Sequence record: MZ234031.1 | Origin: Escherichia phage vB_EcoM-CHD94UKE2 | DNA length: 64,000 bases | Direction: 5' to 3' (one strand) | Shown here: piece after piece, positions 7,027-33,707 of the stretch | Layout: each line of letters opens with the position of its first letter | How positions within the stretch are numbered: the first letter of the stretch is position 1 | Made by a program: the position numbers and the translations under genes | The notes under the pieces: generated by a model | Seen by the model: the letters and a program-made list of their open reading frames with translations, nothing else | Database searches by the model: none | What the model was told of the DNA's origin: nothing

Positions 7027-7290
7027 ATGTTTAAAGTATATGGTTATGATAGCAACATTCATAAATGTGTGTATTGCGATAATGCAAAACGTCTTTTGAC
7101 CGTGAAGAAACAGCCGTTTGAATTTATCAACATTATGCCGGAAAAAGGTGTTTTTGATGATGAGAAAATTGCTGAGCTTCTGACTAAACTAGGTCGTGAT
7201 ACTCAAATCGGCTTGACAATGCCCCAGGTATTTGCTCCTGATGGAAGTCATATTGGTGGATTTGACCAACTGCGAGAATATTTTAAATGA
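7027..7290 (+). CDS. nrdC: glutaredoxin/thioredoxin NrdC
   Basis: 87 aa, CVYC active site, AAGGAA SD; matches T4 NrdC by recall. Confidence 0.9.
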   Translation: MFKVYGYDSNIHKCVYCDNAKRLLTVKKQPFEFINIMPEKGVFDDEKIAELLTKLGRDTQIGLTMPQVFAPDGSHIGGFDQLREYFK

Positions 7291-7675: not shown

Positions 7676-7727
7676 ACCTTGGTGGGCGGCTAGATGGGAA
7701 ACTGTAGAGCCAGAGCCGGAAGAACCG

Positions 7728-7757
7728 GTTTACATTGATGAAGAAACAGTATATAAT
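7728..7757 (+). promoter_or_regulatory. T4-type early promoter (GTTTAC-N18-TATAAT)
   Basis: -35 7728-7733, -10 7752-7757, upstream of ATG 7798. Confidence 0.5.
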
Positions 7758-7797
7758 GAACCAACGATAAATGACTTAATTGATATGGAGATGGGAC

Positions 7798-8283
7798 ATG
7801 ATTACAGTAGATAAGTGGTTTAGAATTAATCGTGTTGATACAGGGCTATGTAATTACTGGCCGGAACTTAGTGCAGGTACTGTCTTTAAAGTTCGTGAAC
7901 TTGCAAAAGAATGCGAAGATGATATAGAACCTGATACTGGAATTATTGAAATTGAACTTTCCGACGGAAAGATTATTAACATCTATGATAAGCCAATTAC
8001 ATACTGGTGTTTGTGGAATACTGAATCCGTTGAAAATGGCGAAATTGAAGAAGTTGTAGAGAGAACTAGCCAAGATGTTCAGAAGCCTAAAGCCGCTTTT
8101 CAAGGTGAACGTATTTCATACGCATTAGCTAAATTAGCTGCGCAAGAAAATAACGATGGCTATGAAGGTAACCTGATGCAAGCTGCCGCAGAGTACATTG
8201 AATGGCTTGAAACTCAAATTTCTTTTTCTGACCAAAAGATTCGGCAATATAAGCGATTGCATCAAATGTTTTACAATACTTGA
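7798..8283 (+). CDS. pin: Pin-like protein (161 aa), assigned by size and position only
   Basis: ATG 7798 after GGAG; 161 aa between nrdC and gene 49 as in T4; ORF-track start 7780 is TTG. Confidence 0.45.
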   Translation: MITVDKWFRINRVDTGLCNYWPELSAGTVFKVRELAKECEDDIEPDTGIIEIELSDGKIINIYDKPITYWCLWNTESVENGEIEEVVERTSQDVQKPKAAFQGERISYALAKLAAQENNDGYEGNLMQAAAEYIEWLETQISFSDQKIRQYKRLHQMFYNT

Positions 8284-8499
8284 AAAAACTCAAAATTCTT
8301 TTTCTGACAGGACATTTTAATGAAAACCGAATTGGTTTATACTGAAAAGTTAAATGGCGGTAAGGTTTGGAAACTTTTTATTAAAGGACATTCTACGGAC
8401 CCTCATATGACCACTTGCGTAGGAACCTATTCTCGTCCTACTAAAAAGATGATTCGACAGTATAAACGATTGCATCGAATGTTTTACAATACTTAAAAA
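8213..8499 (+). repeat. imperfect direct repeats: 3' end of pin duplicated around a 135-bp unique insert
   Basis: 8213-8233 vs 8288-8308 (20/21); 8238-8287 vs 8451-8499 (about 45/50, all transitions). Confidence 0.8.
8320..8496 (+). CDS. small chimeric ORF (58 aa) sharing C-terminal 15 aa with Pin-like protein
   Basis: C-terminal MIRQYKRLHRMFYNT vs Pin KIRQYKRLHQMFYNT; weak SD. Confidence 0.35.
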   Translation: MKTELVYTEKLNGGKVWKLFIKGHSTDPHMTTCVGTYSRPTKKMIRQYKRLHRMFYNT

Positions 8500-8500
8500 T

Positions 8501-8539
8501 AATAAATACCCTTATCTATTTAAGGTAAGGGTATTTATT
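8501..8539 (+). promoter_or_regulatory. 14-bp perfect inverted repeat abutting the gene 49 start codon (possible RBS-sequestering hairpin)
   Basis: AATAAATACCCTTA 8501-8514 pairs with TAAGGGTATTTATT 8526-8539; ATG at 8540. Confidence 0.5.
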
Positions 8540-9013
8540 ATGTTATTGACTGGCAAATTATACAAAGAAGAAAAACAAAAATTTTATGATGCACAAAATG
8601 GTAAATGCTTAATTTGCCAACGAGAACTAAATCCTGACGTTCAAGCTAATCATCTTGATCATGACCATGAATTAAATGGACCAAAAGCAGGAAAGGTACG
8701 TGGATTGCTTTGTAATCTCTGCAATGCTGCAGAAGGTCAAATGAAGCACAAATTTAATCGTTCTGGCTTAAAGGGACAAGGTGTTGATTATCTTGAATGG
8801 TTAGAAAATTTACTTACTTATTTAAAATCCGATTACACCCAAAATAATATTCATCCTAACTTTGTTGGAGATAAATCAAAGGAATTTTCTCGTTTAGGAA
8901 AAGAGGAAATGATGGCCGAGATGCTTCAAAGAGGATTTGAATATAATGAATCTGACACCAAAACACAATTAATAGCTTCATTTAAGAAGCAGCTTAGAAA
9001 GAGTTTAAAATGA
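8540..9013 (+). CDS. 49: endonuclease VII (Holliday-junction resolvase)
   Basis: 157 aa, MLLTGKLYKEEKQ..., Cys cluster; matches T4 gp49 by recall. Confidence 0.9.
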   Translation: MLLTGKLYKEEKQKFYDAQNGKCLICQRELNPDVQANHLDHDHELNGPKAGKVRGLLCNLCNAAEGQMKHKFNRSGLKGQGVDYLEWLENLLTYLKSDYTQNNIHPNFVGDKSKEFSRLGKEEMMAEMLQRGFEYNESDTKTQLIASFKKQLRKSLK

Positions 9014-10827
9014 CAATTGAAAAAGAAATTGAAGGATTGATTCATAAAACTAATAAAGACCTTTTAAACGAGAATGCTAATAAAGATTCTCGTGTTTTTC
9101 CAACTCAACGGGACCTTATGGCTGGTATTGTGTCTAAACACATTGCCAAAAATATGGTCCCGTCTTTTATTATGAAAGCGCATGAAAGCGGAATTATTCA
9201 TTTCCATGATATTGATTATTCCCCTGCTCTTCCATTTACTAATTGTTGTTTAGTAGATTTAAAAGGAATGCTTGAAAACGGATTTAAGCTTGGTAATGCA
9301 CAGATTGAAACTCCTAAATCAATTGGCGTTGCTACTGCAATTATGGCGCAAATTACTGCACAGGTTGCTTCTCACCAATACGGCGGAACGACTTTTGCTA
9401 ATGTAGATAAAGTACTTTCTCCTTATGTTAAACGCACCTATGCAAAACATATTGAGGATGCAGAAAAATGGCAAATCGCTGATGCGTTAAATTATGCTCA
9501 ATCTAAAACAGAAAAAGATGTATACGATGCATTCCAAGCTTATGAATATGAAGTAAATACTCTCTTTAGTTCAAACGGACAGACTCCTTTTGTAACAATT
9601 ACATTTGGTACGGGAACTGACTGGACTGAACGAATGATTCAGAAAGCAATTCTGAAAAATCGTATTAAAGGTCTCGGTCGTGATGGGATAACTCCTATTT
9701 TCCCTAAGCTTGTTATGTTCGTTGAAGAAGGCGTTAATCTTTATAAAGACGATCCGAACTATGATATTAAGCAGCTTGCTTTAGAGTGTGCAAGCAAAAG
9801 GATGTATCCTGATATTATTTCAGCTAAGAACAATAAAGCTATCACCGGCTCATCTATTCCTGTTTCTCCAATGGGTTGCCGCAGTTTCTTGAGCGCGTGG
9901 AAAGATTCAACCGGTAATGAAATTCTTGATGGACGTAATAATCTTGGTGTTGTAACACTGAATCTTCCTCGTATTGCGTTGGATTCTTATATTGGAACAC
10001 AGTTCAATGAACAGAAATTTACTGAATTGTTCAATGAGCGAATGGATTTATGTTTTGAAGCTTTGATGTGTAGAATTAGTTCCTTAAAAGGAGTTAAAGC
10101 GACTGTTGCTCCTATTCTTTACCAAGAAGGTGCATTCGGGGTTCGTCTTAAACCTGATGACGACATAATTGAGTTATTTAAAAACGGTAGAAGTTCAGTG
10201 TCTTTAGGATACATTGGTATTCATGAATTGAATATTCTTGTCGGTCGTGATATTGGACAAGAAATTTTAACTAAAATGAATGCTCGTCTTAAACAGTGGG
10301 CTGAAAGAACTGGGTTTGCTTTTAGTTTGTATTCGACTCCTGCTGAAAACCTTTGTTATCGCTTCTGTAAACTTGATACAGAAAAATATGGAAGTGTAAA
10401 AGATGTTACCGATAAAGGATGGTACACTAACAGTTTCCATGTTTCAGTAGAAGAAAATATTACTCCGTTTGAAAAGATTTCTCGCGAAGCCCCATATCAT
10501 TTCATTGCGACAGGTGGTCACATTTCTTATGTTGAACTTCCTGATATGAAAAATAACCTAAAAGGTCTTGAGGCTGTCTGGGATTATGCTGCACAACATT
10601 TAGATTATTTTGGTGTTAATATGCCAGTAGATAAGTGTTTTACATGCGGAAGTACCCATGAAATGACTCCTACTGAAAACGGATTTGTTTGTTCTATTTG
10701 TGGAGAAACTGATCCTAAAAAGATGAACACAATAAGAAGAACATGCGGCTATCTTGGAACTCCTAGCGTTGTTCCATGGAATTTAGGTAAAATGAAAGAA
10801 ATGGTAAAACGAGTAAAACATGCATAG
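9010..10827 (+). CDS. nrdD: anaerobic ribonucleoside-triphosphate reductase NrdD (uninterrupted)
   Basis: 605 aa continuous ORF, C-terminal glycyl-radical motif RRTCGYLG; no intron. Confidence 0.95.
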   Translation: MTIEKEIEGLIHKTNKDLLNENANKDSRVFPTQRDLMAGIVSKHIAKNMVPSFIMKAHESGIIHFHDIDYSPALPFTNCCLVDLKGMLENGFKLGNAQIETPKSIGVATAIMAQITAQVASHQYGGTTFANVDKVLSPYVKRTYAKHIEDAEKWQIADALNYAQSKTEKDVYDAFQAYEYEVNTLFSSNGQTPFVTITFGTGTDWTERMIQKAILKNRIKGLGRDGITPIFPKLVMFVEEGVNLYKDDPNYDIKQLALECASKRMYPDIISAKNNKAITGSSIPVSPMGCRSFLSAWKDSTGNEILDGRNNLGVVTLNLPRIALDSYIGTQFNEQKFTELFNERMDLCFEALMCRISSLKGVKATVAPILYQEGAFGVRLKPDDDIIELFKNGRSSVSLGYIGIHELNILVGRDIGQEILTKMNARLKQWAERTGFAFSLYSTPAENLCYRFCKLDTEKYGSVKDVTDKGWYTNSFHVSVEENITPFEKISREAPYHFIATGGHISYVELPDMKNNLKGLEAVWDYAAQHLDYFGVNMPVDKCFTCGSTHEMTPTENGFVCSICGETDPKKMNTIRRTCGYLGTPSVVPWNLGKMKEMVKRVKHA

Positions 10828-33449: not shown

Positions 33450-33707
33450 ATGCATATTGTTTTATTTAAACCTACTCCGTATAACGTCAGGAAAAATACA
33501 CAATTCAAAGCACTTATTGCCGATACGTGGGAATTGGTGTTAGATATTCCAGCAGAAGAAAGTCCTCCATTTGGTCGAGTGGAATTTATTAAGTTTGCTG
33601 TTCGCCCTACGAAGCGGCAGATTCGTCAGTGTAAAAGGTATTTTCGTAAGATCGTTAAGCTAGAGAAACAGTTTGTAACATGTGATTACGCAAAAGTTTT
33701 AAAATAA
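33450..33707 (+). CDS. hypothetical protein (85 aa)
   Basis: ATG 33450 after GAGGA. Confidence 0.45.
   Translation: MHIVLFKPTPYNVRKNTQFKALIADTWELVLDIPAEESPPFGRVEFIKFAVRPTKRQIRQCKRYFRKIVKLEKQFVTCDYAKVLK

Follow-up and report, generated by a model that had tools for sequence, protein, structure and literature searches.

The boundary between pin and gene 49 in the DNA analysed here, a stretch of 64,000 nucleotides referred to as the window, is very probably a recombination scar: a genuine 58-codon gene, which we name orfX (8320-8496, + strand), stands beside a Pin protein fused by a 137-nt deletion, and the window carries these parts in a tandem arrangement that we call type III. Judged from gene families and from related phages, it is the T4-type Pin, and not the small ORF, that is the chimera, made up of the Pin core and the last 16 codons of orfX. 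The initial annotation had read the same interval the other way round, as a small ORF in which a novel N-terminus was fused to a Pin-like tail.

The window comes from a T4-like phage (Tequatrovirus). Over positions 7780-9020, the identity is 100% with Escherichia phage vB_EcoM-G3F7 as well as with several further Tequatroviruses, and a total of 730 phage records match this interval. On the + strand, the genes follow the order nrdC (7027-7290), small ORFs, pin, orfX, a 19-bp hairpin, gene 49 and nrdD, with gene 49 (endonuclease VII, 8540-9013, +) anchoring the locus on its downstream side. A strong match to a sigma-70-like promoter (7729-7757, +; TTTACA, 17 nt, TATAAT; 11/12) was observed within the 49.1 homologue, ~40 nt before pin begins.

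The direct repeats reported earlier at the 3' end of pin are real. Repeat A (8210-8232, +; AAACTCAAATTTCTTTTTCTGAC), the functional copy that encodes the last conserved codons of the pin core (ETQISFSD), recurs as A' at 8286-8308 with 22 of 23 positions identical and a spacing of 76, and repeat B (8238-8283) recurs as B' at 8451-8496 with 41 of 46 positions identical and a spacing of 213. The identity of B and B' lies far above the level expected by chance, since the best 46-mer diagonal match in 100 first-order Markov simulations of the region 7700-8700 reached only 30/46 (mean 26.9). A sequencing artefact can be set aside as well, as the same arrangement is found in 113 phage records, RB32 included. 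Two details of the earlier description required adjustment. The differences had all been given as transitions, which holds for the five between B and B' (8244, 8247, 8253, 8264 and 8282) but not for A and A', whose sole difference (8219, T>A) is a transversion. Furthermore, the unique segment of 135 bp corresponds to a gap of 142 nt between A' and B' (8309-8450) as delimited by the repeat finder, and to about 135 nt if a weaker AAAAAG match is counted.

The repeats follow one another as A-B and then A'-X-B', that is, as two adjacent, collinear direct copies with one novel junction, which is the structure of a tandem segmental duplication. The spacings agree (213 - 76 = 137), and A/A' and B/B' are, by this reckoning, two copies of one 213-bp unit, the first of which bears a 137-nt deletion. 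The novel junction lies in an A-run where copy 1 joins copy 2 (8283-8288, +). This run comprises 5 A in phage F1, 6 A in the window and RB32, and 11 A in L14, and CTTGAAA is common to both parental sites of the join. The A-run is length-polymorphic, and the present sequence shows the original join only approximately.

Comparison with T4 alone shows 213 extra bases in the window, and a duplicated pin end that brackets a new segment therefore looks reasonable at first sight. According to this reading, which is that of the initial annotation, the tail belongs to pin, and duplication of the pin end around a 135-bp segment made a chimeric 58-codon ORF. In its favor, the repeats are not only genuine but stand in the same reading frame, and the GenBank record of RB32 already notes a similarity of ORF078c to RB69 ORF087c, a JS98 ORF and pin. 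The ORF and its translation were also described correctly; its identity was not. More specifically, orfX is an intact 58-aa DUF7279 gene of the RB32 ORF078c family. It scores 62.7 bits against the Pfam model DUF7279 (PF23945; cut-off 24.5), with aa 7-56 aligned to positions 1-53 of 53, and it matches phrog_3272 at E 3.4e-34, with aa 1-58 on positions 1-58 of 59. The whole ORF, tail included, is thus covered by the family, and no Inhibitor_I24 match was found in orfX at E <= 0.1, DUF7279 being the only one. More than 100 genomes already list the ORF as a hypothetical protein; in APTC-EC-2A, it is labelled 'host protease inhibitor'.

Repeat B' encodes a C-terminal helix native to orfX. Its basic motif, RPTK..IRQ.KR.HR.FY, is invariant or nearly so in 10 homologues and is present in the Dhakavirus, Gaprivervirus and Mosigvirus copies, in a paralogue of phage G53 and in a second paralogue within the window. 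The dN/dS of orfX ranged from 0.06 to 0.42 in 21 pairwise comparisons and was <=0.25 in every between-genus pair. orfX is a real gene under purifying selection, which extends along the whole ORF. In the AF2 model (pLDDT 81.7, with only one of five models above pLDDT 80), orfX adopts a beta-beta-beta-helix arrangement. The model places the tail in the helix at residues 42-56, and the tail is therefore the DUF7279 family's own C-terminal helix. A fold search of this model against the PDB gave no match with E < 0.1. Scattered dsRBD-containing PDB entries appeared at E 0.3-2, and these were not taken as evidence. A sequence search of solved structures with orfX and Pin found nothing. At the nucleotide level, a Shine-Dalgarno-like AGGA motif (8309-8312) lies 7 nt upstream of the orfX ATG.

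The second DUF7279 gene of the window is located at ~33450-33707 (+) and encodes 85 aa from MHIVLFKP... (PF23945, E 2e-20; phrog_2375, E 2e-38). DUF7279 is thus multi-copy in this phage, and the second copy shares the RPTKRQIRQCKRYF motif with orfX.

The window pin (7798-8283, 161 aa) consists of a core and a captured tail. The core (7798-8232, +; aa 1-145) is the part homologous to all Pin proteins and is collinear with the 148-aa Pins of G50, BMB16 and UFV09. Pin matches the Pfam family Inhibitor_I24 (PF10465) over aa 4-141 with 160.8 bits (cut-off 27) and phrog_2167 over aa 1-146 with E 9e-66. The tail (8233-8283, +) is made up of QKIRQYKRLHQMFYNT and a TGA stop and derives from the 3' end of the neighboring DUF7279 gene. 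It is identical to 8451-8496 at 41 of 46 nt, read in the same frame, and Pin aa 147-161 match positions 44-58 of phrog_3272 (E 0.0098) as well as a local HMM of the orfX family (E 8e-6). A tail native to Pin, as supposed in the earlier reading, is at odds with both results, as the PinA family model stops short of the tail and the tail itself is recognized by the profile of the small ORF's family. The AF2 model of the 161-aa Pin was of low confidence (pLDDT 65, tail below 50), and the seating of the tail on the core is not deducible from it.

The direction of the transfer is indicated by the relatives of the window. Dhakavirus IME08 and UGJNEcP4, Gaprivervirus RZ and Mosigvirus G53 encode tail-less Pins (ends ...RFSDEAF*, ...RYSDEAF*, ...RFADKAF* and ...YLERRLS*) from which QKIRQYKRLHQMFYNT is absent. 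In each of these phages, a 58-59 aa orfX homologue located 3' of Pin carries the tail instead, as RPTKKMIRQFKRLHRSFY.., and the adjacent homologues all present it as RPTKKMIRQ(Y/F)KRLHR.FY. Three more distant metagenomic Pins (P0039-41; 41-44% identity) likewise end in ...SF or ...GF without the tail. Within Tequatrovirus, G50, BMB16 and UFV09 encode a 148-aa Pin ending in SFSDRAF*, whose stop overlaps the orfX start (TAATG), and show no repeats. In four Tevenvirinae genera, orfX occupies the interval from pin to gene 49 and occurs there without repeats beside tail-less Pins. Relatives of this kind, with the ORF as a conserved gene of its own and free of repeats, are what the initial annotation had named as speaking against its reading, and they refute the chimeric-ORF interpretation. 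Tail-less Pins next to tail-bearing orfX homologues reverse the direction of events assumed before: the comparison with T4, which lacks 213 of the window bases, agreed with a duplicated pin end, and the outgroups do not. Gene families and outgroups together demonstrate, at the level of sequence, a polarity of the tail from orfX to Pin. Weighed against the full-length family assignment, the selection along the ORF, the limits of the PinA model, the tail motif in the second window paralogue and the repeat-free relatives, an origin of the small ORF from a duplicated pin end is highly improbable.

Among these relatives, the two genes have fared differently. WG01 (L005) contains orfX and lacks pin, and N-terminal truncation has left a Pin of 72 aa in IME08 (L004, 1003-1221) and of 57 aa in RZ (L006, 1062-1235). 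Because orfX is intact in IME08, RZ and WG01, it is the more stably kept of the two in those genera. In Mosigvirus G53 (L007, 792-962), a DUF7279 paralogue is also located immediately upstream of pin, which places pin between two small genes that are related to each other. The pin genes called in ESh15-like records extend across this upstream paralogue region (P0032 and P0035; 180-184 aa). In another metagenomic protein (P0037, ENA, 191 aa), an upstream DUF7279 paralogue is fused in frame to the N-terminus of a Mosigvirus-type Pin (PF23945 and PF10465), which could be a real loss of the stop codon or an assembly error. Implausible product names are attached to small ORFs upstream of pin in the T6 RefSeq record NC_054907 (L015) as well as in L008 and L018, for example 'baseplate wedge subunit' and 'antitoxin from a toxin-antitoxin system'.

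The earlier suggestion of a duplication or recombination site was well placed, as the scar is real and the locus is a rearrangement hot spot with four layouts within Tequatrovirus. In type I, the 148-aa pin is followed by orfX (~68 records). Type II has the fused pin only and includes T4, T2 and T6 (~252 records, obtained as 365 fused junctions minus 113 of type III). Type III, to which the window and RB32 belong, has the fused pin, a fossil of the old pin end and orfX (113 records), and type IV retains the 148-aa pin only (69 records). These counts were obtained with junction-specific BLAST queries of 39-45 nt at strict E-values, the type III query being 39 nt across the A-run junction, and they are approximate and include duplicate RefSeq/GenBank entries. 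Counts from 76-nt junction queries were rejected; non-collinear pieces were joined, and type I and type II records appeared full-length. All 113 type III junction matches fall within the pin locus, and each record among the matches listed has a single such place. An intermediate with two orfX copies was not found among the loci examined, and one record with two matching places turned out to be an ordinary type III.

The fusion junction can be followed nucleotide by nucleotide. The T4 junction, 'tct gac CGA ATG ATT cag caa tat aag', corresponds to the left side of G50 ('tct gac cga | gcg ttt taa tg') joined to its right side ('aaa aag | atg att cgR caa tat aag'), and the length lost is 137 nt after allowing for a 1-nt indel in the hairpin. 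The parent genes are separate and adjacent in G50, BMB16 and UFV09, and they are joined in frame in T4, T2 and T6, as in a gene fusion. No microhomology is visible at the breakpoints of the Tequatrovirus fusion. The junction residues read RMIQ in T4 and T2, QMIR in RB32 and QKIR in T6 and the window, each one or two substitutions away from RMIR, the residues expected of a pure join. The ending ...LHQMFYNT, derived in comparison with the ...LHRMFYNT of orfX, is common to all fused tails, which fits a single origin of the Tequatrovirus fusion. A single origin would need one or two later substitutions per lineage, and independent fusion events are a less likely possibility.

Deletions at the same boundary have arisen in other forms. 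Type IV phages have lost orfX through a deletion of 169 nt between GTTTTAAT and GTTTTACAAT; in ESh17 and ELT1 (L012 and L013, ~1228-1269), the 148-aa Pin stands directly before the gene 49 hairpin. A second fusion was found in a Mosigvirus-like contig (L017, 1501-1926; Logan SRR20302901; protein P0038), where a Pin ending in ...YLERR is joined to FHRDFYNVY. This fusion, seen in a single metagenomic contig, is in frame, takes the last nine orfX codons and results from a deletion between two ACGTTT repeats. It is independent of the Tequatrovirus fusion.

Between the two copies, the window retains a fossil of the ancestral pin 3' end (8286-8319, 34 nt, +), composed of A' and 'agg aca ttt TAA'. 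Translated in the former frame of pin, its sequence, 'aaactcaaaattctttttctgac agg aca ttt TAATG', gives (E)KTQNSFSDRTF*, and the stop of the fossil shares bases with the start of orfX in TAATG (to 8320), just as in the G50-type counterpart 'tct gac cga gcg ttt TAATG' (SFSDRAF*). Within the fossil, variants occur among other type III phages (agg gca, aag gca), which keep a purine-rich motif. The tandem of the window thus contains the fused pin, the A-run, the fossil and an intact orfX.

These elements can be ordered into a plausible history. The ancestral state would be type I, with a 148-aa Pin (...SFSDRAF*) whose stop overlaps the orfX start (TAATG), followed by the gene 49 hairpin and gene 49. 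A deletion of 137 nt, equivalent to window positions 8309-8445 (+/- 3 nt), took away the final three codons of pin together with codons 1-42 of orfX. It shifted pin into the orfX frame and yielded the 161-aa T4-type Pin that ends in the C-terminal 16 residues of orfX, as found in type II. With the fusion in place, a type II genome may have re-acquired the fossil and orfX from a type I phage through an illegitimate (microhomology) join at the slippage-prone A-run, and the resulting type III cassette would since have spread by homologous recombination. orfX would still be expressed in this cassette, uncoupled from pin translation and presumably using the AGGA motif of the fossil. The direct repeats may also make the locus metastable, as an exchange across B and B' would lead to the T4 layout and one across A and A' back to an unfused layout.

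In the opposite order, the duplication would have come first: a 213-bp tandem of the interval from the pin end to orfX in a type I phage, a deletion in the first copy to give type III, and recombination between B and B' to give type II. This course would yield exactly the observed structure, including the relation of the spacings (213 - 76 = 137), it would rely on 46-bp direct repeats that are plausible substrates for T4 recombination, and B and B' are about equally far from the G50 copy (2 and 2-3 mismatches). On the other hand, the tails of T4, T2 and T6 carry all B-type markers, the TGA stop included, which would confine the crossover to the last few nucleotides. Type II is also commoner and more diverse at the junction, while the type III cassette is nearly clonal, and the loci examined include no intermediate with two orfX copies. 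A further point against it is the junction codon of T4, which is cga as in type I and not as in the fossil. Duplication before fusion is, in our view, possible but rather unlikely.

The sequence comparison thus favors fusion before re-acquisition, because the T4 and T6 tails, both of type II, carry none of the B' markers and because the T4/T2 junction codon cga matches the pin end of type I and not the agg of the fossil, although the latter argument concerns one codon that possibly changed after becoming non-coding. Between the window and RB32, 21 of 412 nt differ in the pin core and 0 of 211 in the fossil and orfX, which suggests that the type III cassette is a recently spread unit. Divergence from the type I copies (6-8% for orfX and 6-12% for the pin core) does not discriminate between the two orders.

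Downstream of B', a 19-bp hairpin (8499-8541, +; -23.5 kcal/mol, z -5.2) covers the ribosome-binding site and start codon of gene 49 and contains the late-promoter-like AATAAATA (8501-8508). It lies outside the duplication, is present in all layouts and is identical in T4, T6, G50 and others. In T4, this hairpin has a regulatory role, as reportedly described by Barth et al. in 1988, a paper that appears as reference B60 in PMC2988022. The immediate proximity of B' to this element raises the question of whether B is kept for its nucleotide sequence, be it as promoter, processing site or RNA element for gene 49, with the likeness of the proteins being incidental. A sub-threshold Rfam match to ohsC_RNA at 8469-8541 (+; 34 bits against a gathering score of 50, E 0.0095) would point in the same direction, but it overlaps mainly the hairpin, is probably due to chance and was rejected as a candidate. 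Four of the five differences between B and B' are silent (three synonymous and one stop-to-stop), which is the signature of protein-level constraint. Furthermore, the promoter/terminator scan found nothing within 8200-8500 (its simple terminator pattern also missed the hairpin of gene 49), and type IV phages lose B entirely and keep only the hairpin. Maintenance of B for its nucleotide sequence is accordingly very unlikely.

The same interval could also be the footprint of a mobile cassette, in which the extra 213 bp would have entered behind pin as a homing-endonuclease or promoter-stem-loop module. In its favor, the region is hyperplastic and lies near known mobile elements of T4 (mobC, and I-TevII in nrdD), and phages with a 5% difference in their flanks share an identical cassette. 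The segment itself holds neither an endonuclease ORF nor a promoter-like site, the 'inserted' gene is native to the same position in other genera, and the junction is a plain A-run. An insertion of this kind has next to no chance of being the correct explanation. A scar left by deletion, in-frame fusion and tandem re-acquisition, as proposed here, accounts for the locus as a compact natural example of T-even gene remodelling, with four layouts in one genus and direct repeats that should permit interconversion between them.

T4 PinA is the founding and only biochemically characterized member of its inhibitor family. Inhibition of Lon is shown biochemically only for T4 PinA, in its fused form (Hilliard et al. 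1998, cited in PMC8835725); the protein is still in use as a reagent in Lon studies (PMC8835725). All published PinA biochemistry within reach was performed on the fused T4 protein. Its 16 C-terminal residues are foreign and represent the C-terminal helix of the neighboring DUF7279 protein, and about a quarter of the sequenced Tequatroviruses encode an unfused 148-aa Pin. A foreign tail on PinA together with natural unfused Pins allows a direct test of the tail's part in Lon binding and inhibition. One might speculate that the DUF7279 helix was kept, and captured twice independently, because its basic aromatic C-terminus alters the engagement of Pin with Lon, for example as a degron-like handle, although we regard this as quite unlikely on the sequences at hand. 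If true, T4 PinA would be a neofunctionalised chimera, the natural 148-aa Pins would differ in potency or specificity, and DUF7279 proteins might act on the same host pathway. The ORF itself was already known as a hypothetical protein, and no paper on the chimeric origin of pin, on DUF7279 or on RB32 ORF078c was found in the searchable literature. The finding represents an evolutionary detail of phage gene remodelling and not a new kind of system.

T4 PinA (pin, UniProt P07068, PF10465) is an inhibitor of the E. coli Lon protease, and the window pin resembles the T4 gene in its length of 161 aa, its DNA (~94% identical), its fused C-terminus (...SFSD followed by 16 residues) and its position upstream of the gene 49 hairpin. 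In contrast to the window, T4 has neither orfX nor the fossil, and its pin abuts the hairpin directly (type II). The two proteins also differ in the four junction-proximal residues, which are QKIR in the window and RMIQ in T4. The orfX DNA is 100% identical to RB32 ORF078c, and the protein resembles RB69 ORF087c and JS98 orf087c-like proteins in its full-length family match and its position between pin and gene 49. The type I phages G50, BMB16 and UFV09 share the same genes in the same order with the window, with A, B and the hairpin nearly identical. Unlike the window, they have no repeats, and their Pin ends in SFSDRAF* with a stop overlapping the orfX start, which would be the ancestral state. 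Between types I and III, orfX encodes the same protein, while the upstream context differs: type I couples orfX through TAATG to a live pin, and type III has the fossil and a start that is uncoupled. The type IV phages ESh17 and ELT1 and the Mosigvirus-like contig resemble the window fusion in having undergone the same kind of deletion at the same boundary, but they differ from it in their clear microhomology and in having no duplication left.
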